The position numbers and the translations under genes are program-made. A stretch of DNA of 64,000 nucleotides. Source: Bacillota bacterium (GTDB taxonomy: Bacteria > Bacillota > Clostridia > Christensenellales > Pumilibacteraceae). The notes beneath the pieces are model-generated. The model was not told the DNA's origin, made no database searches, and saw nothing but the letters and a program-made list of their open reading frames with translations. The DNA is taken from the NCBI GenBank assembly GCA_019113265.1, contig DXHT01000001.1, positions 1,375-65,374 of the forward strand, given 5' to 3'. Positions within the stretch are counted from its first letter, which is position 1, and each line of letters begins with the position of its first letter. Of this stretch, positions 26,342 to 50,034 are shown in pieces.

Positions 26342-26827
26342 ATGGAACTTATCAAAAGATTTGTTTCAAACGCGGGCGTAGGGTTCTGGCTGTCGCTGGG
26401 GGCGTCGGTGCTGTCGCTTATCACTGGCATAGTATACGCCGCGGCATACAACGGGTCCAACTACATGAGCTGGGCGGCTTTTGCCATGTTCGTGCTGGCG
26501 TTCGTCGCGTTTGTGGCTCTCTCGCTTTTCGGCGTGACATACCGTTTCGCGCCTGCCGTGGGAGGAGTGCTTGACCTTATTGCGATGTGCCTGTACATAG
26601 GCGCGGTGTATATGTATCTGTCCGAAGTTTTTTACGGCGGCATAACCGCGGCGGCAATGGCGGAGCTTGATCCGGCATTCGTATTTTGTCTTGTAGCGTC
26701 CGTCGTGTGCATAGGTCTGTTCATAGCGGGCATATTCGTGCGCCAGCGTAAGCGCGTCAAAGCCGATATGAACGGCGGAGAGACGGCGGCAGACGGCCGT
26801 TCGGTAAGCGGGGAGGGAACGAAATGA
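26342..26827 (+). CDS. hypothetical 4-TM membrane protein, translationally coupled to the giant GH3 gene
   Basis: 161 aa with four hydrophobic segments. GGAGGAAATGA precedes the ATG. ATGA overlap with the next gene. No recognisable family. Confidence 0.5.
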   Translation: MELIKRFVSNAGVGFWLSLGASVLSLITGIVYAAAYNGSNYMSWAAFAMFVLAFVAFVALSLFGVTYRFAPAVGGVLDLIAMCLYIGAVYMYLSEVFYGGITAAAMAELDPAFVFCLVASVVCIGLFIAGIFVRQRKRVKADMNGGETAADGRSVSGEGTK

Positions 26828-32800: not shown

Positions 32801-33468
32801 CGAGCAAGATTGTTGCGACTGGCGAAAAACTCCCCGAAGTGATCCTTACGGGCGACAATGCGGCTGAGGGCAAGAGGCTTACGGGCTGGATCGCCGAATA
32901 CGACGGAAAGAAGGTATTCGCCGACGCAGACTTCACCATGCCGGACAGCGACGTAACGCTTACGCCATACGTCACCCTCGGCTGGGAATACGGCAAAGAA
33001 TACGGCGGCGGCGTGCTCGACCTTTCCGAAGACAGGACGGTAACCGAAGGCACTCAGTTGTTCGCGCAGAGCTTTATTTCAAATATTACCGTCGATTCCG
33101 CGTCGATAAGCGGCAGATATATTCTTAACGGAGATAAAGTGGGAACGGAGTATTCGTTCACCGGTCAGGCAAACGAGTATTTCAGACTTGTACGCGCCTG
33201 CGTGGTGAATCCTTCCAACGAACGCACGATAACCTACACTATTAAAAACACGGGAAATACGGCGGTTTCGTTCATAGCGCACCAGGTCAATTCGGGCGCA
33301 GATACAAGCTCCGCGCCCGCAAGCGGCGTTATAACTCTTGACCCGAACGATGAAGAGACGTTCAGCTTGACGTTCAAGTATTCCAATCAGAACGTGATGT
33401 TGCTTATAACTCTTCAACAGGCGGCGACCAACGCCAGAATATGGGTGAGCGCGGAGATCTCCGACTGA
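26824..33468 (+). CDS. giant membrane-threaded glycoside hydrolase family 3 protein with C-terminal Flg_new-like / Ig-like / CBM-like modules
   Basis: 2214 aa. Signal-anchor, then GH3 C-domain motifs (GDILVGNVNPSGRLSDTF, PFGYGMSYTTF), an Fn3-like module, then the GH3 catalytic domain (GLNMHRSPYGGRNFEYFSED, nucleophile context GFAVTDY). Two internal TM segments at 29815-29910 and 30154-30228 flank a Gly/Ser/Ala-rich loop. About 1080 aa of beta-rich repeats follow. Confidence 0.85.
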   Translation: MKKAYFALICKILVIVFALSTALIFTASGIMLENASAVSGFFNAQTQIVYEEDDGEERDSIYYKTQFNSVAEVIANGEELCEEVVAEGAVLLKNDNNALPLNKGGKVTLYGAGSTNIVIGGGGSSVTGASSVNLKDALEDSSVGLDVNDDMYNWYSSHTEYGRKTGTGIGARSTIGEAPWSVLPGAKTAEADAAIFVVTRTGSEDADAYLNSGDNSDMTNGNYLALSPAERDVLTNLKALKGTAFNKIIMILNTTNQVELNFADSEELGIDSILWCGSLGSTGTRAVGDILVGNVNPSGRLSDTFWANHRYNPVNANFGDYTFGGTMADGGDPENLAIYDYGTTYRVGYVVYQEGIYVGYRYTETRYEDYVTGSGNAGDYDYSEVVAYPFGYGMSYTTFGYSSPTFSYDAETDVYTVSVTVTNTGNTAGKETVQVYAQKPYTDYDMTHGVEKAAVELVGFAKTGMLEGGVNASETVSIEVPGEYLAAYDSNGKGTYIAEEGDHYLTIARDAHDAANNILAAKGYTPENTAGRMDTAGDASLAYEITLGDGSAGFDFDSDGVDAEKYSVADTGAEIVNRFDYADINRYENRGDNSVTYVSRKDWNGTVKFGIGDSNTVLDNHVKLILNAALESDLREEKFQKAPEDDIAYPTYGSTKTAYTLMDLRAWGDGDDDPTNDEPIPYDDSMWDDLLDQLTWEDTVKFLSCGERMTSAIDTIAKPQTIDHNGAVGVNQRFNNNEKVNRGFAVTKNDPDKNEYPSAYPCNGIAAATFNVELMTKYGEAWGEDALWAGYAGLYGPGLNMHRSPYGGRNFEYFSEDSVLAGKMCSALSEAIEAKGIYVYLKHPLLNDQEEGRRTISTWANEQTIREIYARPFEICIEEGGTSNIMTGLNKIGPTNNIFTGFVDDLFRGEFGMEGFAVTDYMHNAQSQVMPVAHLYGVDIPDRDYSTMGAYVGYETGHGALAWAMRESVHHVLYTVVHSAAMNGMTANTRIITIKPDWQYILNMFTWLSVTLLIASVLLLATCYAFPWVTDKVKALLSRSKANGAGNDNGGTGGGTNAPNGSAPDSGAGGSGSVADTGANVGADSAVKAKSAPKQSGSVSAEAYMSRKDPFYVWIIRAVIVAALIVAVIVQSVLLTDGVRENRRLIQELTGYNAGRVYEQNGGEGVKSNVFEAEALAFSGSVYDGETDTGHACAPIALTVSGKYSGGVAVGGLAVPEGAEKNTLTLKVVSDKKVRITMSVRVVTATAETPFAEGYTVSANGKTPRNMADAVVGARSAVGELADVGLVIDLEAGENTVVFTAESNAFAIDRVDMQTSAALTEFAPQSWDMSGFAVTQAPTDDAGGVISVADDHATASYDIPSVFAGVASGVYGTVTDGDKISVRLGSTSVEVNSRSAEPHTLTLDTDNVTFADGSKTKELAIFSKMPEVVANLPEGSELIGWYDASDWTKVYGMTDFVMFDYAVTLVPVIEDGNYAVEVSDDPQQVCLNPAKKDGITPIRTDLGEGFDMLNLRDGMTTEAMPGNGAGTAGTVYNYNGSIGQGWSFLTMNACDYTENGTKSLIYVYENKGDTTVSFDVWQTGSSSAPKAEGNPHMSVTLAPGEWTRFVMSFIFNNNNLLTYHEFTAPTSDLRLACAQYIVKGEYVLRPSESSVLSSVEYSGSYKSAYYAGESFDATGLTLTAKFTDGTDLVLSEGEFDISPETISDGQEYVTVSYTHGNVTRSVNVPVRVVEKDSSYNVTITGGASFTDGMTETIVTAGDALPEVVLTGENAETGKRLVGWVVNNGGEYSFAKADEFVMPQADVEITPYVTLGWEYGKEYGGGVLDLSEDKIIVAPGDQNFNQSFVSNITVDSASISGRYVINGDKVGTEYSFTGQTGEYFRLVRACTVRPDTMRTISYRIRNNGEEAVSFTAHQVNSGVNTDGAPSSGSITLQPNEETTFDLSFAYNNENVMLLITLDADANDATLWMSAEISDPQYVNTATITGGAQFADGTTSKIVATGEKLPEVILTGDNAAEGKRLTGWIAEYDGKKVFADADFTMPDSDVTLTPYVTLGWEYGKEYGGGVLDLSEDRTVTEGTQLFAQSFISNITVDSASISGRYILNGDKVGTEYSFTGQANEYFRLVRACVVNPSNERTITYTIKNTGNTAVSFIAHQVNSGADTSSAPASGVITLDPNDEETFSLTFKYSNQNVMLLITLQQAATNARIWVSAEISD
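32026..32748 (+). repeat. tandem coding repeat unit 1 (241 aa) within the GH3 gene
   Basis: Unit starts YNVTITGGASFTDG and ends LWMSAEISDPQ. It is collinear with unit 2 and shares long near-identical nucleotide runs (e.g. TTTCAAATATTACCGTCGATTCCGCGTCGATAAGCGGCAGATA). Confidence 0.9.
32749..33465 (+). repeat. tandem coding repeat unit 2 (239 aa) within the GH3 gene
   Basis: Unit starts YVNTATITGGAQFADG and ends IWVSAEISD. Same module order as unit 1. Confidence 0.9.
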
Positions 33469-34752: not shown

Positions 34753-36501
34753 ATGGAATTCAGTGAATTTTGCAGTCGGTTGCTCGAACGCACCGATATA
34801 GTAAAACTCATATCGCGGTATGTGACGCTTAAACGGGCAGGCAGCAGCTACAAGGCGTGCTGTCCGTTTCATAATGAGCGTACGCCGTCTTTCAGCGTCG
34901 ATCCGAATAAACAGCTATATCACTGTTTCGGTTGCGGCAAGGGCGGCAACGCCATAACCTTCGTGCGCGACATAGAGAATATAGACACGATAGACGCCAT
35001 TAAAATGCTTGCGGACGAGGCGCATATGGAGCTGCCTCAGTTCGAGCGTAGCGGAAAGCGCGGGATAGACAAGGAAAAGCGGCTTCGTCTTTACGCTCTC
35101 ATGCGCGACGCGGCAAGGCATTACAACGCCAACCTCTCGTCGCCGAGGGCGCAGGCAGCGCGCGACTATATACAGATGCGGAAGCTCCCGCCCAACATAG
35201 TGACGCGTTTCGGTCTCGGGTATTCGATAGACTTTACCGAGATAATAACCCACCTTAAAGGCAAGGGATACACCGAAGCGGAGATGAAAGAGGCGGGGCT
35301 TATAGATCGGACGGCGGACAAGTGGTACGACGTATTCCACGGCAGACTTATATTCCCGATAATAAGCAATACGGGCGAAGTAGTCGCGTTCGGGGGCAGA
35401 GCTCTCAGAAAGGACGTTCCCGCAAAGTACCGCAACTCCACGCAGACGGAGATATTCGACAAGAGCCGCACGGTATACGCACTCAACCTGCTCAAAAAGA
35501 AGCGCAGGACGGGACCTCTGCCGTACGTGATAATGTGCGAGGGATATATGGACGTCATCGCACTGCACAAAGCGGGGTTCGACACCGCCGTGGCGAGCAT
35601 GGGAACGTCGCTGACTTATCAGCAGGCAAAACAGCTCAAAAACTACTCGGATAAGGTGATCATAAGCTACGATGGCGACACGGCGGGGCAGAAAGCGACA
35701 ATGCGCGGTCTGGAAATATTGCGCGAAAACGGGCTTACCGTCAAAGTCGCGCGTATGCCCGACGGCAAAGACCCCGACGAGATAATAAACGAGCGCGGTG
35801 CGGACGCATACCGCAAGCTGCTCGAAGAGGCGTTGCCGCTGACGGCGTATAAGCTGGAAATGCTAAAAAAACAGTACGACCTGACCGACCGCGACGACAA
35901 GACGAAATATGCCGCGGAGGCGGTAAAATGCATACGCCGCCTGGAAAACCCCGTCGAGAAAGAGGAGTACCTTCAAACCGTATCCGAGGAAACGGGATAC
36001 GACATGAAAGTACTGCGCGCACAGGCCAAGGTGACGACGGGCGAAGAGGAGGGCGCGGAGCAGGAAGCGAAGCCGCCCGAGCCGCCGCCCGCGCGCGACA
36101 AGAGCGAAACGTATCTTCTTGCGGCGTACGTCGCGGGAAAACCGTACGTCGACCCGCGCGATCTTGTGGAGCTGTTCCCGGACGGGTTCGAGCGCAACCT
36201 CATAGACTCCGTGACGGACAGCCGTATGCACGGCATGAAAGACACGGCGGCTATGCTGTACACCGATCTGCCCGAGGGCGTGCATAGACTGCTACCCGAA
36301 ATAATAGAGTTCGATCTTTCGGGCACGGACGACGAAAAGATATATCGATCGTGCGTGCGTAAGCTGAAAATAAAACGGCTTGAAAAAAAGTGCGTGGAGC
36401 TTGCGGCGGCGTACGACGAAACCAAAGACGTAAAGTACCTTGAACAGACGAAAGATTGCAGGGACGCGATCAAACGTCTGAGAGAGAACGGAGGAATATA
36501 A
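34753..36501 (+). CDS. dnaG: DNA primase
   Basis: 582 aa. Zinc-ribbon CPFHNERTPSFSV......YHCFGCG, TOPRIM (EGYMDV..L...G), C-terminal helicase-interaction region. Confidence 0.95.
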   Translation: MEFSEFCSRLLERTDIVKLISRYVTLKRAGSSYKACCPFHNERTPSFSVDPNKQLYHCFGCGKGGNAITFVRDIENIDTIDAIKMLADEAHMELPQFERSGKRGIDKEKRLRLYALMRDAARHYNANLSSPRAQAARDYIQMRKLPPNIVTRFGLGYSIDFTEIITHLKGKGYTEAEMKEAGLIDRTADKWYDVFHGRLIFPIISNTGEVVAFGGRALRKDVPAKYRNSTQTEIFDKSRTVYALNLLKKKRRTGPLPYVIMCEGYMDVIALHKAGFDTAVASMGTSLTYQQAKQLKNYSDKVIISYDGDTAGQKATMRGLEILRENGLTVKVARMPDGKDPDEIINERGADAYRKLLEEALPLTAYKLEMLKKQYDLTDRDDKTKYAAEAVKCIRRLENPVEKEEYLQTVSEETGYDMKVLRAQAKVTTGEEEGAEQEAKPPEPPPARDKSETYLLAAYVAGKPYVDPRDLVELFPDGFERNLIDSVTDSRMHGMKDTAAMLYTDLPEGVHRLLPEIIEFDLSGTDDEKIYRSCVRKLKIKRLEKKCVELAAAYDETKDVKYLEQTKDCRDAIKRLRENGGI

Positions 36502-37635
36502 ATGAACGAAAACGAAACGACGGCAAAGAGCGAAGAGCAGGCACAGCAGCCTGCGGAGCGCAAGCCGCTCAGTGAAAAGATCCGCAAGGAAGTCAACAGG
36601 CTGATAGCAGTCGGTAAGCACCGCGGCAGCGTGACTTACGACGAAGTGGGCGAAAAGATCGCAATAGGCTGCGACGCGACGGTAAGCGAGATCGAAGAAG
36701 TTCTCCGTATACTCGAAGAGAACAATATCGAGGTAAAGGACACCAAGATAGACATCGTCAAGGACGATTCTCTGGACAAGCTGATAAGCGACGCGTCCAT
36801 TTCGTCCGACGACCCGGTTAAAGTGTATCTTAAAGACATAGGCAAGGTGCCCCTTCTTACGGGCAACGAGGAAGTGGAGCTTGCTCAGAAGATGGCGGAG
36901 GGCGACGAAGCCGCCAAGGCGCGCCTTTCAGAGGCTAACCTGCGACTCGTCGTGTCCATAGCGAAGCGCTATGTAGGGCGCGGCATGCTCTTTCTCGACC
37001 TCATTCAGGAGGGCAACCTCGGTCTGATGAAGGCAGTCGAGAAGTTCGACTACACCAAGGGCTTCCGTTTCTCGACGTATGCGACGTGGTGGATACGCCA
37101 GGCGATCACCCGTGCGATAGCCGATCAGGCGCGCACCATCCGTATCCCCGTGCATATGGTGGAAACGATAAACAAGCTCACGCGCACGACGCGCCTGCTC
37201 GTTCAGGCTCTCAACCGCGATCCCACTCCCGCCGAGATAGGCAAGGAAATGGGCATAAGCGAAGACAAGGTGCGCGAGATACAGAAGATCGCGCAGGATC
37301 CCGTATCCCTCGATACGCCCATAGGCGAGGAAGAGGACAGCCACCTCGGCGACTTCCTCGAAGACACGCACGCATCCAGCCCTCAGGATCAGGCGACTAC
37401 TACCATGCTCAAAGAGGAGCTTATGAGCGTTCTCGAAACGCTCACCCCGCGCGAGCAGGCGGTCATCAGACTGCGTTACGGCATAGACGGATCGCACCCC
37501 CGTACTCTCGAAGAGGTAGGCAAGCGGTTCGGCGTCACGCGTGAAAGAATAAGACAGATAGAGGCAAAGGCACTGCGCAAACTGCGCAACCCCGCGCGAA
37601 GCAAACGCCTTAAAAGCTATTATTCCGAATCTTGA
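36502..37635 (+). CDS. rpoD: RNA polymerase primary sigma factor
   Basis: 377 aa. Region 2 ([14 protein letters not shown]), region 3 and region 4 ([20 protein letters not shown]). Directly follows dnaG. Confidence 0.95.
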
Positions 37636-41960: not shown

Positions 41961-42008
41961 AAGCACCGCAATGCGGCAGATTGCCGCATTGCGGTGCTTT
42001 ACGTTTTG
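41961..42008 (+). terminator. intrinsic terminator
   Basis: 18-bp perfect stem AAGCACCGCAATGCGGCA/TGCCGCATTGCGGTGCTT, followed by TACGTTTTG. Confidence 0.75.
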
Positions 42009-42110
42009 CGAGCTTAAAGGCAGACGAGCGGGCAGAATTTGCGGCATACGCATGCCAAGAAAATTGTTAGGTATGGCGGCGAAAATTTTACTTAAACCGC
42101 GTCAATACGT

Positions 42111-42139
42111 TTGACAATCGCGCGCAAATGTAGTATTAT
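42111..42139 (+). promoter_or_regulatory. promoter of the tRNA-Leu gene
   Basis: TTGACA (42111-42116), 17-nt spacer, TATTAT (42134-42139), about 28 nt before the tRNA 5' end. Confidence 0.65.
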
Positions 42140-42167
42140 AACAAAGCTGTTAGCGAAAGCGGCACAA

Positions 42168-42250
42168 GCGGTTGTGGCGGAATTGGCAGACGCGCAAGAC
42201 TAAGGATCTTGTGGGCGACCGTGCAGGTTCAACTCCTGTCAACCGCACCA
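42168..42250 (+). tRNA. tRNA-Leu, encoded CCA, anticodon read by hand as AAG
   Basis: 83 nt. Acceptor GCGGTTG/CAACCGC. Leu-type D arm GGCGGAATTGGCAGACGCGC. Anticodon stem CAAGA/TCTTG with loop CTAAGGA. 11-nt variable region. T arm GCAGG-TTCAACT-CCTGT. 3' ACCA. Confidence 0.9.
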
Positions 42251-42252
42251 TG

Positions 42253-42285
42253 AAAAACGGAGCACAGACAAGTGCTCCGTTTTTC
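42253..42285. terminator. intrinsic (bidirectional-type) terminator directly after the tRNA
   Basis: AAAAACGGAGCAC-AGACAA-GTGCTCCGTTTTT, with an A-tract and a T-tract flanking a GC-rich stem. An identical copy lies at 46508-46540. Confidence 0.8.
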
Positions 42286-42304
42286 GCGGTTGACAGGAGT
42301 TGAA
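42286..42304. repeat. inverted 19-nt copy of the tRNA-Leu T-loop/3'-acceptor segment
   Basis: GCGGTTGACAGGAGTTGAA is the exact reverse complement of 42228-42246. The same 19-mer recurs at 46541-46559. Confidence 0.9.
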
Positions 42305-42408
42305 GCTTAAGAAGGCGCGAGGGAACAGAAAACACACTGTGTTTTCCCCGAGCGGGCAAGCAATCTGCGATTGCGCAGCCGACGGATTTTCCGTTAGGGA
42401 AAATCCGT

Positions 42409-42426
42409 CTCCTGTCAACCGCACCA
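42409..42426 (+). repeat. direct 18-nt duplicate of the tRNA-Leu 3' end (att-like remnant)
   Basis: CTCCTGTCAACCGCACCA equals 42233-42250. It ends exactly where the AT-rich DNA begins. Confidence 0.9.
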
Positions 42427-42429
42427 CGA

Positions 42430-42445
42430 ATAACGTAAGTTGAAC
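42430..42445. repeat. left subterminal inverted repeat of the insertion
   Basis: ATAACGTAAGTTGAAC, 3 nt inside the left boundary. Exact reverse complement at 46477-46492 and a direct copy at 46458-46472. Confidence 0.85.
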
Positions 42446-42454
42446 TGATAAGGT

Positions 42455-43027
42455 TTGATTTGCGTTATTTTTTTTTTTTTTACTTTTACCTATGATAGTA
42501 AGTTGCACACGGAAGAATCATTTCGTAAATGCCTGAAGAAAACACTTTCCAATTTCTGCTCCCGAAAGGGCTGGAAATATATCGGCGTTTGGGAACGTTC
42601 GCCCGCAAAAGAAAGACTGCATTTTCATAGTTTGCTTTATATTCCCGACGGCACGATGCTGGAGTTTATGTTTGAGGACAATACATATAGTTTCACTGAG
42701 CACAAAAGGCAAATAACGCTTCAGAATATGTACTTCAAGGAAAGGTTTGGAAGAAAAGACTTCGAGGCGATAGAAGATCAGACAGGACTTCATAAAGCAA
42801 TGCATTACATAATGAAGTATATTGAAAAGTCCGGAGAGAGAATTGTCTACTCCAAAGGACTTCCGCAATTCATCATTTCGGACATTATGGACGACGACGT
42901 TATCTGTCCCATCGGCATGGAAGATCAGAAGCTTCTTCTCTTTGACGACTTTTTGTGTTGGGACGAAGGCTGTTTGATAGGTCCGGTATCGCCCGAAGTG
43001 ATAAGACAACTGCGCACCGTAAACTAA
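42455..43027 (+). CDS. HUH-superfamily rolling-circle Rep-like protein (two-tyrosine type); start uncertain, possibly decayed
   Basis: 190 aa. Motif 1 FTFTY (aa 9-13), motif 2 LHFHSLLY (HUH, aa 55-62), motif 3 YIMKYIEK (Y-x-x-K-Y-x-x-K, aa 118-125). TTG start without a usable SD. A T14 tract encodes FFFF at codons 6-9. Confidence 0.6.
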   Translation: MICVIFFFFTFTYDSKLHTEESFRKCLKKTLSNFCSRKGWKYIGVWERSPAKERLHFHSLLYIPDGTMLEFMFEDNTYSFTEHKRQITLQNMYFKERFGRKDFEAIEDQTGLHKAMHYIMKYIEKSGERIVYSKGLPQFIISDIMDDDVICPIGMEDQKLLLFDDFLCWDEGCLIGPVSPEVIRQLRTVN

Positions 43028-43059
43028 AAAGCTTACGGATAAACGCAAACTATAAATAA

Positions 43060-43240
43060 AACACGGCACAGGCGGTTAAAGGCGAAAATCGGCAAGCGGT
43101 TTAGCGGCGATTTCGACTTCCGTCGCGCGTTTTTATTTGGTTTATTTTTTCGGGTTTTAGTTGTGGGGCGTGTGCTTGCCTCGGCGGAGCGTAGCGGCGC
43201 CGACTTGTATAAGTCAAGCACCCGCCACAGTGCCATTTTT
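43060..43240. other. GC-rich dyad-symmetric non-coding block inside the AT-rich element (candidate replication origin or structured RNA)
   Basis: Imperfect 12-bp stem GGCGTGTGCTTG/CAAGCACCCGCC (43167-43178 / 43215-43226) encloses TCGGCG...CGCCGA and the segment GACTTGTATAAGTC. A T-rich tract lies at 43130-43150. GGCACAGGCGG (43065-43075) can pair with CCGCCACAGTGCC (43222-43234). Confidence 0.35.
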
Positions 43241-43342
43241 CTAAAATTGATTTGTTATATAATGAGTTGTGGCAAATTGATTTATTACAATTTTACTTGA
43301 TTTAGAGCGAGATAAACTTTGCTATAAATTAAATCGCATTAT

Positions 43343-43370
43343 TGCTTTCCGCACCCGATAATGCTATAAT
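43343..43370 (+). promoter_or_regulatory. promoter of the large orphan gene
   Basis: TTGCTT (43343-43348), 16-nt spacer, TGcTATAAT extended -10 (43362-43370). Confidence 0.6.
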
Positions 43371-43395
43371 ATAGGTGCAAAGGGGTAATTTTACA

Positions 43396-46300
43396 ATGGA
43401 CAAATTAAATGCGTTAGTTATTCAAAAAGATATTAAGAATTATATTAAACAATTACAAAAAAAGGAATTGTATTTTTTTGGTGTGCCCGAAGAATTAAGG
43501 TTAAATTCTTCGATAGTTGCGATTGAAAGAGAATTGGGTATACGAAAAACTATTAAAAAGGGGTTCAACATCATAAATAATACTTTTTTTGTTGAAGAAA
43601 TAGTATTGCATAAAGAATGGAACGATGAAATTGTAGAAAAAACAATAACCACGCTTTTTTCTTGTTTTGAAACTTATTTTGAATTTTTACAAGGCGATAT
43701 TTATGAGAATGCTTGCTACTATAAATACAATTTTACACAAGAAGAAATAGATAAATATTCTATTGATATTTTAAAAATCAATTTTAGAAGCTTTATTCAA
43801 TATGATATTGATAATTTTACATTAGCATTTTCAGAAAACGAAATTTTACAATATAATGAAGCGGAAAAACGTAAAATTAATTTAAAAAAATGGTTAGTAA
43901 AGTTTAATAATTGCCAAACTTATGAAGAGTTTAAGCAAGTATATTCAAATTTAAAAAAATCAGCTTTTTCAAATAATTTAAATTTCTTTTTATTCAATTT
44001 CATTTACGGAAACAACGAAAACGTATTTAATATAATTACACAATTTTTAAACGATAACAATATATTTAATTTTGAAAAAGTTTTATGCTTAAAATTTAAT
44101 TCATACGAAGTTTTAAACGCATATGATAACAGTAAATTTTATTCATCTGCTACCGCTAAAAAATGGAAAGACAGATTAAAATTTTTTATTGAAAAACTGG
44201 AAAATAAAGAAATAGCATTTACTACTATTATATATTTTGATAAAGACTTGCATTTTTTCGTATGTCGTGAAATTGGTAAGCCTAAAAATTATCAAAGCAT
44301 TAATGGCTATATTCCTACTTTGGTAGACGCTCATAGGTATTTTGAAACGTTTGACGAATTAGCTAAATTTTTAGATTATGACTTATCAAATTGTGATTTA
44401 TCGCAAGCGATTTTACCTGATTTAGAATTATCAAAATATAAGATTAATGAACAAACGAAATTGCCGATAAATTTTGAGAAAAATTTTACATACAATGTAA
44501 CCAAAATATTTGATAGGTTTAAAAATCATTTTTTAGTTAAACAAATTTGGTTGAATGAATTTGGAAAAATAATCAAAGAATATAATCATACGTTTAATTA
44601 TTTTTGTGATTACGTCCATTTTCTAAAAAATGATTTGTCTGATGCCGATTTATTGTTCTGCGACGGCTTATCTAATGTAATTGATTTTAGTGATTTAAAT
44701 TTAACTAATGCAAAATTAAAAAGTAACATTCTCGATAAACTTGGTGTTAGATATGAACTAATAAGCAATACAGTTGAAAGTTTTGGTCAAACAAAGGCTA
44801 ATGAATTAGAAACAGTAAATGCTTTGATTGCAGAAAGAGAACAGTTAAGTTTTGAAGAAACTCTCAAATGTCAAAAAATTTATTATATTACAGATTTACA
44901 TTTATTACACAGATTGCACAATGCAAATTGCAAAAGCTATTATGATAAATTTTATGTGTTTCAAAAAATAATAGATAGTCTTTTAAACTCTGTTCACAGC
45001 TGGGAAAAGAACATAATTCTTATAGGCGGTGATACCTCTTCTGATTTTGCTTTTTTTGAATTGTTTGTTAAACAATTAAGGACTTCTATTGATGAAAGAA
45101 AATTAGATGTGCAAGTTATTTTTACTCTTGGGAACCACGAATTATGGGATTTTGTCGGAGATAAATTTAATGAATTTGGTGGCTCTAATTTTGATAATAC
45201 CAAAAGAATAACATTTGATGAAATTGTGGATAAATACAGAAAAGTTATTACCGAAAATAAAATGTATTTGCTACAAAATAATCTTATATTTAAATATGAT
45301 TGGAATAGTATTGAAGAGATTAGTGCGGAAGAGATTAAAAATTTATCACAAACGCAACTTTTAAATCGTCTTAAAAAAGCAAGGCTGATTTTATTTGGCG
45401 GATTAGGATTTGCTGGTTGTAATAATGAATTTAATGCAAATCAGTTAATTTATAGGCTTGCAATAAATAGGCAACAAGAAATTGAAGAAAGCAAGAAGTT
45501 TGAAGAACTATATGAAAAAATTTGTGCAGACTTATCTGATAAGCGAGTAATTATATTTACACATATGCCACAAAAAGATTGGTGTTCAAGCAACATGCAA
45601 GTTAAAGGTTTTATTTACGTTAATGGGCATACTCACCGAAATTACTTTTATGATGATGGCGATTACAGATTATATTCTGATAATCAAGTGGGGTATTATC
45701 AAGAAAGGTGTAAATTAAAATACTTTTATTTAGAAGATGATTACGATTTGTTTGCAACCTATGAAAATGGAATTTATGAAATATCAAGAGAAGATTATGT
45801 TGATTTTTATATCGGTAAAAACATAAATATGGACTTTTTTAGAGATTTTGATAAACTCTATATGTTAAAAAAGAATAGATACTATTTGTTTATTTTGCAA
45901 AGCGCAAACGGTAATTTGAATATTCTAAATGGTGGTGCAATAAAGCGGTTAGCAAATAATACAGTACATTACTATTATGAGAATATGGATAGAGTTATTT
46001 CTTATATTAAAACGCCATTAGATAATTTCAGCGATTATCAAAAACAAATTTCTGACGAAATCAAAGCTATCGGGGGTAGCGGTAATATTCACGGCGCGAT
46101 TATTGATATTGATTTTTTTAATCATATTTATGTGAACCCGATTGATTTGAGTGTAACCGCATATTGGGCAAGTGATATTGTAAATAAAATCATATTTGAA
46201 GATACTCCAACGCTTTTAAAATGTAATTGTCCGCAATTATACGCAAATTATTTAAAGCAAATTGAAAGCAAATCAAAAACAGCTCTTGTTTTAAATAAAT

Positions 46301-46446
46301 CTTCGATAGTTAGACCGCCACAATTTTATTTAGATACCGATATATATGGGGCTTCAAGAGAAATTAAGAAAATGCAAAAGTTAAGCTCAAATATTTTAAG
46401 TTTATGGGTTGAGCCTGAAAATAAAAAAATTGAGCAATGGCAATAA
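43396..46446 (+). CDS. orphan ~1016-aa protein: N-terminal unknown region with pentapeptide-like repeats, central calcineurin-type metallophosphoesterase domain, C-terminal unknown region
   Basis: ATG at 43396, 10 nt after AAGGGG, preferred to the GTG at 43375. All five phosphoesterase motifs are present in order: ITDLH, IGGDTSSD, LGNHELW, IFTHMP, NGHTHRN. There are three copies of an F..F.EF/YV.FL..DLS.ADL-type module. Confidence 0.8.
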   Translation: MDKLNALVIQKDIKNYIKQLQKKELYFFGVPEELRLNSSIVAIERELGIRKTIKKGFNIINNTFFVEEIVLHKEWNDEIVEKTITTLFSCFETYFEFLQGDIYENACYYKYNFTQEEIDKYSIDILKINFRSFIQYDIDNFTLAFSENEILQYNEAEKRKINLKKWLVKFNNCQTYEEFKQVYSNLKKSAFSNNLNFFLFNFIYGNNENVFNIITQFLNDNNIFNFEKVLCLKFNSYEVLNAYDNSKFYSSATAKKWKDRLKFFIEKLENKEIAFTTIIYFDKDLHFFVCREIGKPKNYQSINGYIPTLVDAHRYFETFDELAKFLDYDLSNCDLSQAILPDLELSKYKINEQTKLPINFEKNFTYNVTKIFDRFKNHFLVKQIWLNEFGKIIKEYNHTFNYFCDYVHFLKNDLSDADLLFCDGLSNVIDFSDLNLTNAKLKSNILDKLGVRYELISNTVESFGQTKANELETVNALIAEREQLSFEETLKCQKIYYITDLHLLHRLHNANCKSYYDKFYVFQKIIDSLLNSVHSWEKNIILIGGDTSSDFAFFELFVKQLRTSIDERKLDVQVIFTLGNHELWDFVGDKFNEFGGSNFDNTKRITFDEIVDKYRKVITENKMYLLQNNLIFKYDWNSIEEISAEEIKNLSQTQLLNRLKKARLILFGGLGFAGCNNEFNANQLIYRLAINRQQEIEESKKFEELYEKICADLSDKRVIIFTHMPQKDWCSSNMQVKGFIYVNGHTHRNYFYDDGDYRLYSDNQVGYYQERCKLKYFYLEDDYDLFATYENGIYEISREDYVDFYIGKNINMDFFRDFDKLYMLKKNRYYLFILQSANGNLNILNGGAIKRLANNTVHYYYENMDRVISYIKTPLDNFSDYQKQISDEIKAIGGSGNIHGAIIDIDFFNHIYVNPIDLSVTAYWASDIVNKIIFEDTPTLLKCNCPQLYANYLKQIESKSKTALVLNKSSIVRPPQFYLDTDIYGASREIKKMQKLSSNILSLWVEPENKKIEQWQ

Positions 46447-46457
46447 TGAATAAAAAA

Positions 46458-46492
46458 ATAACGTAAGTTGAATTTGGTTCAACTTACGTTAT
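46458..46492. repeat. perfect 15-bp-stem palindrome at the right end of the insertion
   Basis: ATAACGTAAGTTGAA-TTTGG-TTCAACTTACGTTAT. It is preceded by an A-run, so on the minus strand it reads as a hairpin plus T7 (terminator-like). It is followed by the 10-nt palindrome TGGTGCACCA. Confidence 0.85.
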
Positions 46493-46499
46493 GGGTGGT

Positions 46500-46575
46500 G
46501 CACCATGAAAAACGGAGCACAGACAAGTGCTCCGTTTTTCGCGGTTGACAGGAGTTGAAGCTTAAGAAGGCGCGA
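46500..46575. repeat. right copy of the 76-nt perfect direct repeat
   Basis: Identical to 42245-42320. It is followed by a longer variant of the GAAAACA...TGTTTTC hairpin, the conserved 35-nt block (46616-46650) and a third, diverged hairpin. Confidence 0.95.
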
Positions 46576-46806
46576 AGCGTTAAGAAAACAGGACTGAATG
46601 TCCTGTTTTCAGCGTAGCGGGCAAGCAATCTGCGATTGCGCAGCCGACGGGGTTTCCGAAGAAAAACCCTTTTTCTGTCGGATAAAATGAAATCAAAAGC
46701 ATAAAGACCGCCGGAATTTGACCATCCAAACATGCGTTGCGAGGGTCATTTCCATATTCCGCAAATTTCAGGTATAAAATGCCGATGAGAGTCAAAAATA
46801 CCGCAT

Positions 46807-48309
46807 ATGGACTCCATTTCTATCTGGCAGAGTACGGACGACGGCGTACGCAGCTACCCGCGTCTGACGGAAAATATAAGCGCGAACGCGCTTGTCGTTG
46901 GCGGCGGGATAGCGGGTTATCTCACCGCATATCGCCTTGCGGAAGCGGGGCGGAAAGTCGTGCTCATAGAGGGCTATCGGCTGTTTTCGGGCACGACGGG
47001 GCATACGACGGCTAAAATAACATATCATCAGGGCAGCGTATATCCCAAGCTCGTCAAGAGTTACGGCGTATCCGTCGCAAAGCGGTATTATGAGGCGCAG
47101 GTGAGCGGCATGCGTGATATTCTCGCCCTTACGCAGGAACATTCGATAGACTGCGACTGGCGGGTCATGAACGGATACATCTATTCGTCGGACGGCGGCG
47201 AGGAGACCAAGCGCATTTATTGCGCCATGTCCGAGGCGGGGATAAAGACGGAGCTCGAACATTCGTCCACGCCTGCGGGCGATTTTCTCACCGTGCGCGC
47301 GGAAAATCAATATGCATTTCATCCGCTTAAATTTTTGCGAGCTCTTCCCGTGCATTTCGATATTTACGAAAACACGCGCGCTATAAAGTTCGACGTAAAG
47401 AAAAAGACGGTATACACCGAAGAGGGAAGCGTACACGCCGATCTTATCGTGATCGCTACGCGCTATCCGACGATAGACGAATACGGCTCGTATTTCATGC
47501 GACTTCGCCCGTCCATGTCGTATACCGTGGCCGTAAGCGGAGCGGCATGCGGTGCGACGTATCTTGACGCGCGCGAGGAAGGGCTGTCCGTAAGGCCTTA
47601 CGACGGCGGCGTCACCGTGGGCGGCTATGACCGCAGAACGGGTACGGGCGACATGCATGCTTTTCTCGGACTGCGCGCCGTGGCCGCGCGAATGTTCGGA
47701 GACAAGGTGGTCGTGGCGGAATGGGCGGCTCAGGACTGTATGACTTTCGACGGAGTGCCGTACGTCGGGTGCTATTCTCCCGAACTGCGCGATATATACG
47801 TCATAACGGGGTTCAACAAGTGGGGAATGGCAAACTCCGCAACTGCGGCGCGGCTGATAGCCGATCTCGCGGACGGAAGGGAGAACCCGTTCGAGGAGCT
47901 GTACTCTCCCACACGCAGGCGCAAGGGCACGGCGGGCGGATTTATCCGTAATGCCGTTCGTAGCGTGGCATACCTCATAACGGGAAATCTGCACTATCCG
48001 CTGTCAACGTCCCGATCGATCGCCCCCGGAGAGGGCAAAGTAGTGCGACTTCACGGCAAAAAACGCGCGGTGTATAAAGAACCGGGCGGGAGGCTTTACG
48101 CGACGGAAGCGATGTGCCCGCACCTCCATGCGGAAGTAAAGTGGAATTCCGAAACGCAGACGTGGGACTGCCCGTGCCACGGCTCACGATTCGATAAGTT
48201 CGGTAACGTGATATCTGCTCCCGCACATTGTAACCTGCGCTCGCACACACGTCTTGCGGAAGAATCGGCAAGTAAAAAGAAAGAAAAGGCAAAGAGTAAA
48301 ACGGAATAA
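46807..48309 (+). CDS. FAD-dependent oxidoreductase with C-terminal Rieske [2Fe-2S] domain
   Basis: 500 aa. Dinucleotide-binding VVGGGIAGY..A..L. C-terminal CPHLH...CPCHGSRF Rieske motif. Confidence 0.85.
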   Translation: MDSISIWQSTDDGVRSYPRLTENISANALVVGGGIAGYLTAYRLAEAGRKVVLIEGYRLFSGTTGHTTAKITYHQGSVYPKLVKSYGVSVAKRYYEAQVSGMRDILALTQEHSIDCDWRVMNGYIYSSDGGEETKRIYCAMSEAGIKTELEHSSTPAGDFLTVRAENQYAFHPLKFLRALPVHFDIYENTRAIKFDVKKKTVYTEEGSVHADLIVIATRYPTIDEYGSYFMRLRPSMSYTVAVSGAACGATYLDAREEGLSVRPYDGGVTVGGYDRRTGTGDMHAFLGLRAVAARMFGDKVVVAEWAAQDCMTFDGVPYVGCYSPELRDIYVITGFNKWGMANSATAARLIADLADGRENPFEELYSPTRRRKGTAGGFIRNAVRSVAYLITGNLHYPLSTSRSIAPGEGKVVRLHGKKRAVYKEPGGRLYATEAMCPHLHAEVKWNSETQTWDCPCHGSRFDKFGNVISAPAHCNLRSHTRLAEESASKKKEKAKSKTE

Positions 48310-48310
48310 C

Positions 48311-48343
48311 AAAGACGGCGCATAAAGCCGTCTTTTTATTTTT
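48311..48343 (+). terminator. intrinsic terminator
   Basis: AAAGACGGC-GCATAAA-GCCGTCTTT followed by TTATTTTT. Confidence 0.8.
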
Positions 48344-48645
48344 CCGCATTTTTTTAACGTCCGTCCGCATGGCGGTTTTCAATGCCGTGTCGGCGTACGT
48401 ACCGCCGCCGTACGTATTTATATAACTATGGATTTTACGTGTCCGCACCGCGCATACCGCCCGCACCGCGCCCTTCACCACGTGCATTGCGCGTCTGCTC
48501 CGTGCGTCTCATTCCGCAAGACAGCATCGCGCACTTTTGTTTTTCGCGGCGTTTTTTTTATTGCGACGAATGCGATTTTTTACGAAAATAAGCATATAAC
48601 GGCTGAAAACGCTTGACAAAATCCGCCGATAGTATTATACCGTGC

Positions 48646-50034
48646 ATGGGGAATCGGGAGGCAGTTTTGGTAAAAGATCTCTCCGTGGGAAATCCGTTTA
48701 AAGTGCTCTGGCTGTACTCGCTGCCGCTCATAGGCAGCGTGGTGTTTCAGCAGATGTACAACATGGCGGACACGATCATTGCGGGCAAGGCGATAGACGA
48801 TTACGCTCTCGCCGCGGTGGGAGCGTCGTATCCCGTGACCATGATTTTCATGGCGGTCGCGCTCGGCTGCAACCTCGGTTGCTCGGTCATAGTGTCCCGC
48901 TTTTTCGGGCAGAAGCACTTTGCCGAGGTTCGGGAGAGCGTTTCGACCATACTCATATCCGTAGCCGTTCTCGGCGTGGTTATGACGGGTGTGGGCATAG
49001 GTATAGGCAGTCCGATAATGCGGCTGCTCCAAACGCCCGAAAGCATTTTCGGAGACGCTCTCGCATACCTTTATATCTATATCGGCGGCTTCATATTCGT
49101 GCTGATATATAACGTCGGAACGGGAATTTACACGGCGCTCGGCGACTCGATGACGCCTTTCCTTTTCCTCGTAGCGTCCAGCCTGGGCAATATAGGACTG
49201 GACCTTTTGTTCGTGCTTGCTTTCCGCATGGGCGTTGCGGGTCTTGCCTGGGCGACGTTCATATGTCAGGGTATAGCGGCGGTGCTGTGCGTGATCGCGC
49301 TCCTTCTGCGCCTGCGCAAACTGGGCGGCGATCGTAAGCCCCGACTGTTCTCGCGGCAACTGCTTGCGAGAATGTGCATAGTGGCGATACCGAGCATATT
49401 ACAGCAGAGTTTCATATCCATAGGCAATCTGTTCATACAGGCGCTCGTAAACGGGCACGGCGAACTCGTGCTTGCGGGATATACCGCGGCGATAAAGCTG
49501 AATACGTTCCTCCTTACGACTCTGACGACGGTGACGGGCGCGCTTTCCTCATACACGGCTCAGAATATAGGCGCGGGAAAGAGTGAAAGGGTCGCCAAAG
49601 GTCTTGCGGCGTGCTGTTCGATAACGGGCATACTTCTGGTGCCGTTCATGGTGTTCTATCTGGCATTCCCGCAGACCGCGCTGTTGCTGTTCACGCAGGA
49701 CGTTTCGGGCGAAGCTATGGCAACGGGCGTTCAGTTCCTGCACATGGTGGTGCCGTTTTACGCGGTAGTGGCGATAAAGCTTCTCTGCGACTCCGTCATG
49801 CGCGGATCCGAACGCATGATACCGTTCATGATAACGACGTTCTCCGACCTCGTCATACGCGTTGCGCTTTGCTTTATATTCGACCCGGGCATGGGCATGG
49901 GACCCATGGGACTGTGGCTGTCTTGGCCGATAGGCTGGTCCGCGGGCGCGGCGCTGTCCGTAGTACTCTGTCTGTTCGTGGGTAAGAACAGGCTTATAGG
50001 GCTGGCAGGGCGAAAGCGCAAGACCATTTCTTAG
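48646..50034 (+). CDS. MATE family efflux transporter
   Basis: 12-TM protein with the N-terminal MATE pattern (PLIGSVVFQQMYNMADTIIAGK). The track start 48613 is a TTGACA hexamer. Realistic starts are the ATG at 48646 or the TTG at 48667 (5 nt after GGGAGG). Confidence 0.85.
   Translation: MGNREAVLVKDLSVGNPFKVLWLYSLPLIGSVVFQQMYNMADTIIAGKAIDDYALAAVGASYPVTMIFMAVALGCNLGCSVIVSRFFGQKHFAEVRESVSTILISVAVLGVVMTGVGIGIGSPIMRLLQTPESIFGDALAYLYIYIGGFIFVLIYNVGTGIYTALGDSMTPFLFLVASSLGNIGLDLLFVLAFRMGVAGLAWATFICQGIAAVLCVIALLLRLRKLGGDRKPRLFSRQLLARMCIVAIPSILQQSFISIGNLFIQALVNGHGELVLAGYTAAIKLNTFLLTTLTTVTGALSSYTAQNIGAGKSERVAKGLAACCSITGILLVPFMVFYLAFPQTALLLFTQDVSGEAMATGVQFLHMVVPFYAVVAIKLLCDSVMRGSERMIPFMITTFSDLVIRVALCFIFDPGMGMGPMGLWLSWPIGWSAGAALSVVLCLFVGKNRLIGLAGRKRKTIS

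Follow-up and report, generated by a model that had tools for sequence, protein, structure and literature searches.

tRNA-Leu locus and genes of the inserted unit

The window (the whole 64-kb stretch of DNA analysed) contains an intact tRNA-Leu(aag) gene, in the trailer of which lies a 4.08-kb segment (about 42423-46499). This segment forms a ~4.1-kb unit consisting of a relic Rep gene and one large cargo gene. The features of the locus, with their coordinates in the window, are the following:

42111-42139, + strand: tRNA-Leu promoter, TTGACA-17-TATTAT, 11/12 matches, the top promoter-like site of the region
42168-42250, + strand: tRNA-Leu(aag) gene, intact (ARAGORN; Rfam, 54.9 bits), 3' end ...CTCCTGTCAACC-GC-ACCA
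42245-42320, + strand: 76-nt repeat copy A, comprising the last 6 nt of the tRNA, a terminator hairpin, and a 22-nt inverted copy of the tRNA 3' end (42286-42307)
42251-42408, + strand: trailer copy A, with the terminator hairpin, the inverted tRNA-3' motif, and three more hairpins, orthologous to the single trailer of L008
42409-42426, + strand: pseudo-attachment site 't', an 18-nt copy of the tRNA 3' end (CTCCTGTCAACC-GC-ACCA), left junction of the unit
42427-42481, + strand: left arm, CGA-ATAACGTAAGTTGAAC...TTTGATTTGCGTTAT-T14, a terminator-like hairpin facing inward, inverted repeat with the right arm
42482-43027, + strand: HUH rolling-circle Rep gene, 5'-truncated (mechanical ORF 42455-43027; PF23343 at 5e-11)
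43088-43395, + strand: cargo upstream region, with an extended -10 promoter (TGCTATAAT, about 43363-43371) and a ribosome-binding site AAAGGGG, both read from sequence
43396-46446, + strand: cargo gene, 1016-aa protein with a central metallophosphoesterase domain (aa ~501-755; PF00149 at 6e-9)
46447-46499, - strand: right arm, ACCA-CCC-ATAACGTAAGTTGAA-CCAAA-TTCAACTTACGTTAT-T7 on this strand, a terminator facing inward
46496-46505, no strand: right junction, 10-nt palindrome TGGT-GC-ACCA, the putative crossover point
46500-46575, + strand: 76-nt repeat copy B, identical to copy A
46506-46675, + strand: trailer copy B, hairpin architecture as in copy A, second and fourth hairpins diverged

The tRNA-Leu(aag) gene is 100% identical to those of L008 and L009, and its promoter is conserved in both. 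An insert-free locus, which the preliminary description had proposed to look for, was found in the three closest species (L008, L009, and L010), where tRNA-Leu(aag) directly adjoins the orthologous DAO-Rieske gene. The reported G+C contrast was reproduced exactly (16/60 at 43441-43500 versus 34/60 at 46861-46920), as was the difference in isoleucine codons, with ATT at 63% in the large ORF and ATA at 69% in host genes. The insert has two compositional parts, with G+C contents of 42.5% at 42427-43250 and 26.5% at 43251-46446 (host, 55%). The earlier reading of a foreign AT-rich insertion in the tRNA-Leu trailer is supported.

The Rep protein of the unit retains motif I (TFTY), the HUH motif (HFH), and YIMKY, and lacks ~135 N-terminal residues compared with its relatives of 329-332 aa, the intact ones of which are replication or relaxase-type genes. 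There is no ATG start, and the TTG start has poor ribosome-binding-site spacing. Three synonymous and five nonsynonymous differences separate the window copy from that of L003, with substitutions at family-conserved residues; the divergence of Rep is four times as fast as that of the cargo gene, and in the nearest sister lineage Rep is interrupted by an in-frame stop or a frameshift. The HUH Rep of the unit is probably decaying. The cargo protein belongs to a family of 97 members, and its AlphaFold2 model (mean pLDDT 85) gave weak fold matches to CD73, Mre11, and WipA/B. No match was found in PADLOC, NCBIfam, or PDB sequences; only the central domain has an assignment, the N- and C-terminal domains being uncharacterised. 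The cargo gene has a pN/pS of about 0.35 and is apparently expressed, and its relatives occur in defence-island-like neighbourhoods.

Boundaries of the unit and the trailer duplication

Near-identical parts of the unit, whose presence elsewhere had been suggested as a check, were found in two other contexts. L003/L004 are 99.1% identical to window positions 42421-45159, with unrelated DNA upstream and without trailer copy A, while L001/L002 are 98.6% identical to 43088-46501, with different DNA on both sides. From these copies, the unit ends were placed at 42421-42427 and 46495-46501. Since the independent copies lose homology at 42421 and 46501, the left unit end is the 18-nt tRNA-like site, located ~100 nt inside from 76-mer copy A.

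The insert is bounded by inverted terminal arms of ~25 nt or more with 92% complementarity, which were absent from the preliminary description. Both arms were scored as inward-facing terminators by a terminator scan (42428-42470 on the + strand and 46492-46458 on the - strand), so that whichever end adjoins the tRNA would terminate its transcription. The T-run of the left arm is T14 in the window versus T10 in L003. The left junction reads tRNA-like B arm-GC-ACCA-arm, and the right one reads arm-TGGT-GC-ACCA-trailer, starting exactly at the first base after the CCA of the tRNA. Only GCACCA is common to both, and the direct repeat actually flanking the unit is 6 nt. The palindrome TGGT-GC-ACCA also makes up the L003/L004 junction, which has the same form on the other end of the unit and continues into an L009-type tRNA-Leu trailer, starting with the base that follows CCA. 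In L001/L002, the arm abuts the 3' end of a tRNA-Leu(cag). Both window junctions were reproduced in L005, a 73-kb MEGAHIT k141 contig spanning the entire structure with 1 mismatch in 17.5 kb, and in two second-sample scaffolds, L006 and L088.

The 76-nt direct repeat is perfect (42245-42320 and 46500-46575), as previously described, but homology does not stop there: the flanks are homologous over ~170 nt. Past the 76 nt, a hairpin with compensatory changes is followed by 43 nt at 95% identity and then by a second diverged hairpin. The 76-mer occurs only twice in the 64-kb window (0 copies expected by chance). From the comparison of the flanks, it is the best-preserved part of a ~170-nt tRNA trailer duplication, with the unit between the two tandem copies, and does not appear to be a recombination core or a crossover scar. 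The view of the repeat pair as the scar of a crossover between a circle and the tRNA was not upheld, given the unit boundaries at 42421 and 46501, the junctions sharing GCACCA only, and an insert-free trailer duplication at tRNA-Leu in L009 (122-nt repeat). Trailer duplications or tRNA-3' scars without the unit occur in L009 and L016. The 18-nt duplicate of the tRNA-Leu 3' end (42409-42426, equal to 42233-42250) was correctly noted before; this site and the entire trailer architecture are already present in L008, which holds the diverged counterpart CTCCCGTCAACAGCAC at that place and matches trailer copy A at 80% identity (BLAST; L008 7366-7691, reversed). Trailer copy B ends without a recognisable 18-nt site. 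Identity between the two trailer copies is perfect over 76-88 nt, after which they diverge strongly, a pattern that no history considered explains cleanly.

Proposed attachment sites and recombinase, and alternative explanations

The segment is best explained, with a probability of roughly 0.6, as a decayed, non-autonomous integrative (mobilizable) element of CIME-like type, which has kept its attachment sites, lost its integrase, and would use a helper recombinase in trans. The unit sits at a pre-existing 18-nt imitation of the tRNA-Leu(aag) 3' end in the trailer. In the circular form, the arms would meet as a pseudo-palindromic attachment site (...CGTTATGGG-TGGT-GC-ACCA-CGAATAACG...); the reconstructed circle junction gave a long hairpin fold (z = -7.7), and its half-sites match at 20/23 positions. 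The central GC of the circle would recombine with the GC within the end of tRNA-Leu (...CAACC-GC-ACCA), resulting in insertion of the unit. As the dinucleotide GC is self-complementary, the unit could insert in either orientation. This one crossover rule, at the GC of GCACCA, reproduces every junction seen, in both orientations, which would fit a large serine recombinase whose central dinucleotide is palindromic. The attP of serine integrases is a pseudo-palindrome with ~25-bp half-sites, its orientation is set by the central dinucleotide alone, and a palindromic dinucleotide is expected to abolish orientation control (PMC3783163).

As stated in the preliminary description, no recombinase is encoded within or beside the insertion; tblastn probes and Pfam analysis of the integrase-sized ORFs tested revealed none elsewhere in the 64-kb window. 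The lack of an integrase in cis supports the need for a trans-acting recombinase, one of the options proposed earlier. The enzyme supplied in trans would most likely be the large serine recombinase of a co-resident element, and a tyrosine integrase is possible. In L021, an island with a 530-aa large serine recombinase is located at this very position of tRNA-Leu(cag), and L014 has an 83% homologue. The core of the island reads GGT-GC-ACCA, and the ATAACGTAAGTTGAAC hairpin recurs at its far junction. The Rep family of the unit co-occurs with large serine recombinases in L091, L140, and L148, and in L091 a tyrosine integrase also lies next to Rep. Counting against the CIME-like reading, no recombinase is tied to the unit, and the attP arms of the L021 island differ from those of the unit outside the 9-nt core. 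Neither a circular form nor, within the same species, an unoccupied site was observed.

The model of the preliminary description, in which a circle already bearing a trailer copy (copy A) together with the 18-nt site and the 4.08-kb unit entered the chromosome by recombination, either at the true tRNA end or inside the 76 nt common to both, is considered doubtful. Whether homologous (Campbell-type) or site-specific for a composite 'accreted' element, with the trailer duplicated on both sides, one crossover would leave the order tRNA-76-mer-...-unit-76-mer-..., and the right junction indeed starts at the first base after the CCA of the tRNA. The hairpins differ between the trailer copies as if they came from different genomes, although a donor near enough to share 76 perfect bases would be expected to resemble the locus more closely in the neighbouring hairpins. 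CIME-IME and CIME-ICE composites are known to excise and move together (PMC5704250), but in L003/L004 the unit exists alone, without trailer copy A and with its boundary at 42421. Moreover, copy A and the 18-nt site are colinear with the single trailer of L008, including the trailer end that copy B lacks, and unit-free relatives also show trailer duplications.

It is quite unlikely that the short HUH Rep is still active, nicking and joining at GCACCA in the arm hairpin and integrating into tRNA-Leu 3' ends without an integrase. Its three HUH motifs and whole catalytic domain are intact, and short forms starting at motif I occur in many lineages, but the clustering of such forms is partly due to ascertainment. 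The strong arm hairpin with the core at its tip resembles rolling-circle origins, and two different Reps of the family are found linked to the cargo module (window and L001); however, elements with full-length Rep (L092-L105) are not at tRNA genes, and relatives carry dedicated recombinases. The N-terminal loss, the missing ATG, the substitutions at conserved residues, the fourfold faster divergence, and the stop or frameshift in the sister lineage make the unit's own HUH protein, once suggested as an integration agent, an unlikely one; the T14/T10 difference also shifts the upstream frame. Still less probable is a MITE-like terminal-inverted-repeat transposon with cargo, mobilized by a DDE transposase whose gene lies elsewhere. 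The ~25-nt inverted arms (92% complementarity) and the absence of an enzyme in cis agree with it, but the window, L003, and L001 junctions show no consistent target-site duplication, every insertion is at one specific sequence (tRNA-Leu GCACCA), and reciprocal exchange at a shared core, as opposed to cut-and-paste, accounts for the junctions. An assembly artefact, with a circular or foreign contig threaded in via a shared k-mer, is hardly credible. The repeat length is suggestive (76 = k-1 for k = 77), and several assemblies break at module boundaries (L006 and L088 at about 43207-43261; L007; L089), but the L005 contig and the second-sample scaffolds reproduce the structure, and homology continues past 76 nt in diverged form.

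Comparison with known integrating elements

CIMEs, element accretion at the 3' ends of tRNA genes, and IME relaxases of Rep-like type have been documented (PMC5704250, PMC5357655), and the unit would be a tidy example within an established class of integrating elements rather than a new type of system. Like CIMEs and decayed Firmicute IMEs (Guedon et al. 2017, PMC5704250; Coluzzi et al. 2017, PMC5357655), it lies at the 3' side of tRNA-Leu in a tandem or relic-rich trailer, lacks an integrase, retains both attachment sites, needs a helper in trans, and combines a rolling-circle Rep-type gene (a putative relaxase in IMEs) with a cargo gene. Streptococcal tRNA-Leu IMEs have tyrosine integrases and directional sites, whereas the unit has a palindromic core, symmetric arms, and both orientations. 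No transfer function, such as an oriT or a coupling protein, was recognisable in the unit.

As in large serine recombinase systems (phiC31, Bxb1, A118, and TnpX/TndX), the reconstructed attP is pseudo-palindromic with ~25-bp half-sites, and the att sites share little beyond GCACCA, fitting a 2-bp crossover; L021 and L014 have a serine-recombinase island at this tRNA-Leu position. The unit differs in that neither it nor the window encodes a serine recombinase, the crossover position being deduced from sequence. Natural serine-integrase sites normally have a non-palindromic central dinucleotide, whereas that of the unit is palindromic. The tRNA 3' end is also an unusual target for serine-recombinase IMEs, which usually disrupt genes (PMC5704250).

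With IS91/ISCR, IS200/IS605, and Helitrons, the unit shares an HUH-motif protein, end hairpins, and the lack of a classical integrase. However, its truncated Rep belongs to PF23343 (phage/plasmid replication initiators) and not to a transposase family, its ends are inverted repeats, which those elements lack, and its insertion resembles reciprocal exchange at a shared core. The location at a tRNA gene, the foreign base composition, the single-gene defence-like cargo, and the 18-nt copy of the tRNA 3' end resemble tRNA-linked genomic or defence islands with tyrosine integrases, but the unit has no integrase, its flanking direct repeat is only 6 nt, and the 18-nt copy, present in L008, predates the insertion. 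Part of the apparent use of either orientation may stem from inversion of the interior between the inverted arms. The terminal hairpin, rather than being a designed arm, may be a tRNA-Leu terminator captured from a former host.

Boundaries of the insertion at tRNA-Leu

The tRNA-Leu(aag) gene is the sole tRNA gene of the window (Rfam, 54.9 bits), and the Rfam search found no RNA family other than tRNA. The elements of the locus are listed below.

Features of the tRNA-Leu locus
42168-42250, + strand: tRNA-Leu(aag)
42245-42320: 76-nt direct repeat, first copy
42251-42408: trailer copy A
42409-42426: 18-nt copy of the tRNA-Leu 3' end
42427-42481: left inverted arm of the unit
42455-43027: small ORF, truncated Rep
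43396-46446: large ORF, 1016-aa cargo protein
46447-46499: right inverted arm of the unit
46500-46575: 76-nt direct repeat, second copy
46506-46675: trailer copy B

The preliminary description had reported a perfect 76-nt direct repeat, an 18-nt duplicate of the tRNA end, and a break in base and codon composition, all of which were reproduced. The 76-mer has just two copies across the window (0 expected by chance), the 18-nt site equals the final 18 nt of tRNA-Leu, and the quoted G+C counts were exact on recount. Ile is encoded by ATT at 63% in the large ORF versus ATA at 69% in host genes, and the G+C content of the insert is two-part, with 42.5% in the small ORF and 26.5% in the large ORF, compared with 55% in the host. 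The ATA preference of the host is itself an unusual bias at this G+C content (e.g., genes 26824-33468, 34753-37635, and 46807-50034); the first of these is a 2214-aa ORF on the + strand. Under Campbell-type insertion through the 76-mer, the model of this description, the element boundaries would fall at the long direct repeats; the left end of the shared unit maps to 42421, 100 nt past the end of the first 76-mer copy. Two independent sets of copies define the ends: loci L003/L004 match window 42421-45159 with 99.1% identity and have unrelated upstream DNA, and loci L001/L002 match 43088-46501 with 98.6% identity and are linked to another Rep, which is longer and encoded on the opposite strand. 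These boundaries indicate a mobile unit of ~42423-46499, with its left end at the 18-nt site. The same truncated unit occurs in a second host context (L003/L004) with 99% identity. The cargo module (43088-46501) is paired with two unrelated Rep modules, those of the window and of L001. Two scaffolds of sample ERZ28615049 break at 43207-43261, overlapping by 55 nt, which suggests that variants with only the cargo module in common coexist in this sample.

Both junctions were recovered in a 73-kb MEGAHIT k141 contig of the same strain (L005) and in scaffolds of a second sample (L006 and L088), which excludes a k-mer assembly artefact. The unit ends in inverted arms, left GCACCACGAATAACGTAAGTTGAAC and right GTTCAACTTACGTTATGGGTGGTGC (25 nt), which had not been reported in the preliminary description; both were scored by a terminator scan as intrinsic terminators directed into the insert. 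At the right junction, TGGTGCACCA (46496-46505) forms a palindrome of 10 nt, and testing for attachment sites revealed GCACCA at both junctions and symmetric arms. A viral-contig scan with the terminal 15-mer gave 22 chance matches, none of them in the GCACCA context. The origin of the terminal hairpin as a native Christensenellaceae tRNA-Leu(cag) terminator was unsupported, the trailers being wholly different among loci L011-L017 and L021; its capture from one former host is possible. In agreement with the earlier claim, a recombinase gene was found neither in the insert (Pfam) nor in the rest of the 64 kb, searched with tblastn probes from related loci and by Pfam on ten integrase-sized ORFs, all of which were housekeeping genes. 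The same searches found neither a tyrosine integrase beside the tRNA-proximal end nor a Resolvase, Recombinase, and Zn_ribbon_recom protein in cis, in the unit or the window.

In the three closest species of the genome collection (L008, L009, and L010; flanking-gene amino acid identities of 85%, 71%, and 68%, respectively), tRNA-Leu(aag) is immediately adjacent to the orthologous DAO-Rieske gene, and the 4-kb insert is missing. The tRNA gene is 100% identical in L008 and L009, where the contig holds it completely. An empty site of the same species was not found by exact look-ups of host flanking proteins, whose matches all came from the same strain (L005-L007, L088, L089, and L106); one protein had no record. 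In L008, L009, and L010, tRNA-Leu is oriented away from the DAO-Rieske gene; relative to all three, the tRNA-Leu cassette of the window (promoter, tRNA, and trailer) is inverted with respect to the flanking genes (window ~42040-46790 compared with L008 7176-7834, L009 9300-10000, and L010 1-230). The breakpoints fall at ~41999-42058 and ~46676-46790, and a short inverted repeat, AATTTGCGG, lies nearby at ~42038, with its complement at ~46766.

Trailer copies, attachment site, and candidate helper recombinase

Homology between the two flanks extends over ~170 nt, comprising 76 perfect nucleotides, a hairpin with compensatory changes, 43 nt at 95% identity, and a second, diverged hairpin, and stops at a TC(C/T)TGTC microhomology, at which point the 18-nt tRNA-like site starts. 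The single trailer of L008 has a matching architecture (a terminator, an inverted 22-nt tRNA-3' motif, three hairpins, and a diverged 18-nt tRNA-like site), so these motifs are older than the insertion, which makes the 18-nt site a pseudo-attachment site. Of the two trailer copies, copy A is the one colinear with the L008 trailer through its end. In window 42225-42307, the terminator is directly followed by 22 nt that repeat the tRNA 3' end in inverted orientation (also at 46541-46562), and a diverged form of this motif is kept in L008 (~7480-7565). Pairing among the tRNA 3' half, the terminator, and the motif can give a single hairpin of ~36 bp that has a 5-nt bulge. Head-to-head recombination at the tRNA end may have left the motif as a relic, or it may be a structure for processing or regulation. 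A 122-nt tandem duplication in the tRNA-Leu trailer (96% identity) was observed in L009 (9440-9726), and a 23-nt tRNA-3' copy, left as a scar 198 nt downstream, in locus L016 (11810-12030), both without this unit or any large insert. tRNA-Leu is a recombination hotspot in these genomes.

In the simplest reading, two tandem trailer copies were already in place and the unit entered between them, at the 18-nt site. Before insertion, the copies would have made an 88-nt perfect repeat; the two-trailer empty site is predicted as CTCCTGTCAACCGCACCATGAAAAACGG preceded by trailer copy A. Alternatively, trailer copy A and the unit may have moved as a composite that entered at the true tRNA end, which is near the original model. 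This history, which we regard as unlikely, predicts a circle with trailer copy A in which ...GGGTGGTGCACCATGAAAAACGG runs into GGGAACAGAAAACACAC, compared with CGTTATGGGTGGTGCACCACGAATAACG as the predicted circle junction of the unit alone. Over 76-88 nt the trailer copies match perfectly, and beyond that they are strongly diverged, a pattern poorly explained by either history; gene conversion behind it is possible.

If the unit were circularised, its arms (motif GCACCA-N3-5-AACGTAAGTTGAA) would meet as ...CGTTATGGG-TGGT-GC-ACCA-CGAATAACG... The reconstructed junction is a pseudo-palindrome with half-sites ACCACCCATAACGTAAGTTGAAC and ACCACGAATAACGTAAGTTGAAC around GC, matching at 20/23 positions, and its DNA fold has z = -7.7 against shuffles. 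Exchange at the central GC with the tRNA-Leu end (...CAACC-GC-ACCA-trailer) would yield every observed junction. In the window, the left arm is attached to the tRNA-like arm, and the right junction reads right arm-TGGT-GC-ACCA-trailer. L003/L004 show the opposite orientation, with left arm-TGGT-GC-ACCA followed by an L009-type tRNA-Leu trailer from base 1 after CCA, and in L001/L002 the 3' end of tRNA-Leu(cag) is attached to the right arm. All junctions are compatible with exchange at GC and both orientations are present, the shared GCACCA leaving the exact cut unplaced. The attP of serine integrases is a pseudo-palindrome with half-sites of ~25 bp, and their sites synapse in either alignment, orientation being set by the central dinucleotide alone (PMC3783163). 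Since GC is palindromic, both orientations would be allowed.

The enzyme moving the unit would most likely be a large serine recombinase supplied in trans. A candidate helper occurs in a Christensenellaceae MAG (L021), where the gene for a 530-aa Resolvase/Recombinase/Zn-ribbon protein immediately adjoins tRNA-Leu(cag); the 5.8-kb island there ends in ...GTAAGTCGGT-GC-ACCA-ACC-ATAACGTAAGTTGAAC..., with the same core and hairpin as the arms of the unit. Locus L014 holds an 83% homologue in the same position. At these loci (L021 14750-20690; L014 3633-5261), the large serine recombinase island, with a MerR-type regulator and an ABC transporter, adjoins the DAO gene region at tRNA-Leu(cag), and the recombinase ORF runs into the tRNA gene. 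Reviews give tRNA 3' ends as targets of tyrosine integrases, so serine recombinases seem uncommon there.

The Rep gene and the affinities of the unit

The small ORF encodes an HUH rolling-circle Rep of a large family (Pfam PF23343; 1925 matches). Full-length members have 329-332 residues; the window copy begins at motif I, without ~135 N-terminal residues and with no ATG start, and the T-run of the terminator occupies the expected position of the N-terminus. The run differs in length between the window (T14) and L003 (T10), so that the upstream frame is shifted. The two genes differ at 8/546 nt. Five of these changes are nonsynonymous, among them a P-to-L substitution in the conserved GTMPG and an S-to-P substitution in EKSGE. 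In the closest sister lineage (78% identity), the gene is interrupted by an in-frame stop or a frameshift. Judged from sequence, the window Rep is probably a relic.

Intact Rep relatives sit in elements with serine or tyrosine recombinases, PcfJ/K, ArdA, and toxin-antitoxin genes. In loci L091, L140, and L148, the family occurs alongside large serine recombinases, and L091 also has a tyrosine integrase. tRNA targeting as a property of the Rep family was ruled out, as no tRNA lies near the full-length Rep elements of other lineages (L092-L105); specificity for tRNA is therefore set by the recombination module rather than by Rep. The compact Rep element of L092 showed no convincing repeats at its boundaries. 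Alignment against viral contigs gave two Rep loci only, and the plasmid and phage collections contained no Rep relative and just a weak partial match to the cargo protein, so nothing favours a free replicon. Many independent short Reps start at or just before motif I (TFTY), namely P0086, P0029, P0089, P0114, L140 (~7092), L148 (~3547), and the window copy (42482). A single breakpoint shared by all of them, such as a nick site inside rep, was rejected: homology to full-length genes ends within ~30 nt upstream of the start, with scattered breakpoints and clustering that is partly ascertainment. The position of these starts could still reflect a hotspot of recombination or nicking within rep. 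Locus L103 has a partial tRNA-like 3' end (...GGGATTCGAATTCCTTAAGGTGCACCA; ~5730-5766) ~3.7 kb downstream of a full-length Rep. This end, which again contains GGTGCACCA, may represent the distal attachment site of the Rep element there.

The best fit for the unit is a decayed integrative mobilizable element (IME), similar to a CIME. CIMEs keep attL/attR, lose integration genes, and undergo accretion at tRNA 3' ends; the relaxases of many IMEs are relatives of rolling-circle Reps (PMC5704250, PMC5357655). The unit is likewise bounded by att sites and has lost its own integration gene, the truncated PF23343 Rep being a trace of replication or mobilization. Unlike the described tRNA-Leu IMEs with tyrosine integrases, it has a likely serine-recombinase use, a symmetric site with a palindromic core, and terminators at both ends. 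The pseudo-palindromic attP fits integration by a large serine recombinase, whose gene is absent from the unit but present in L021, L014, L091, L140, and L148. With regard to a tyrosine-integrase tRNA island, the window has no tyrosine integrase gene. An 18-nt copy of the tRNA 3' end is present, a diverged version of it is already found in the insert-free L008, and the unit's own ends repeat 6 nt only. An HUH transposon was rejected because the Rep is 5'-truncated and of the wrong family (only PF23343 was found) and the ends are 25-nt inverted arms, whereas IS91, IS200/IS605, and Helitron elements lack terminal inverted repeats.

A further explanation, which we consider quite improbable, is that the unit is not debris but a working minimal 'integration cassette', with the cargo gene between inward terminators that jointly form a symmetric attachment site. 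Any large serine recombinase specific for tRNA-Leu could then insert it in either orientation, leaving the tRNA undisturbed; in a more radical version, the short HUH Rep itself could join at GCACCA. If true, single defence-type genes would be carried among gut Clostridia by such a cassette, mobilised in trans. More generally, the decayed-IME reading would mean that a single foreign gene, possibly for defence, can keep moving among gut Clostridia though its carrier lost every mobility gene, the sole requirement being a symmetric attachment site with a match to a tRNA gene end. With its palindromic GC core, the unit would represent a natural example of orientation-free site-specific insertion, which to our knowledge has so far been known mainly from engineered serine-integrase sites. 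For annotation, the longest direct repeat flanking an island may differ from its attachment site.

The cargo gene

The large ORF is preceded by an extended -10 promoter and a good ribosome-binding site, both read from the sequence. Between copies, 11/3051 nt differ, and pN/pS is ~0.35 from these few differences. A central metallophosphoesterase domain was found by Pfam, with D500, H502, N580, and H745 as putative metal-site residues, and the AlphaFold model was confident (pLDDT 85). PADLOC, NCBIfam, PHROGs, and a PDB sequence search gave nothing past a generic phosphoesterase (Metallophos), with no match to a described defence protein family in PADLOC or NCBIfam, and Foldseek against PDB gave weak matches to metallophosphoesterase cores only. 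A 982-aa ORF of L148, considered as a candidate homologue, is not one. Genes for TIR-PP2C, CapR-like, PIN, and methyltransferase proteins neighbour the homologues, in one case downstream of tRNA-Arg; these defence-like neighbourhoods suggest a defence role for the cargo protein. The family has 97 members, no relative with a solved structure, and defence-island contexts, and would be a sensible choice for functional work. The homologue at tRNA-Arg(acg) (L115 5638-13801, also L116; 58% identity) is flanked by a DUF4379/CapR/NUMOD protein and a TIR_2+PP2C protein, and its island has a typical defence-island look.
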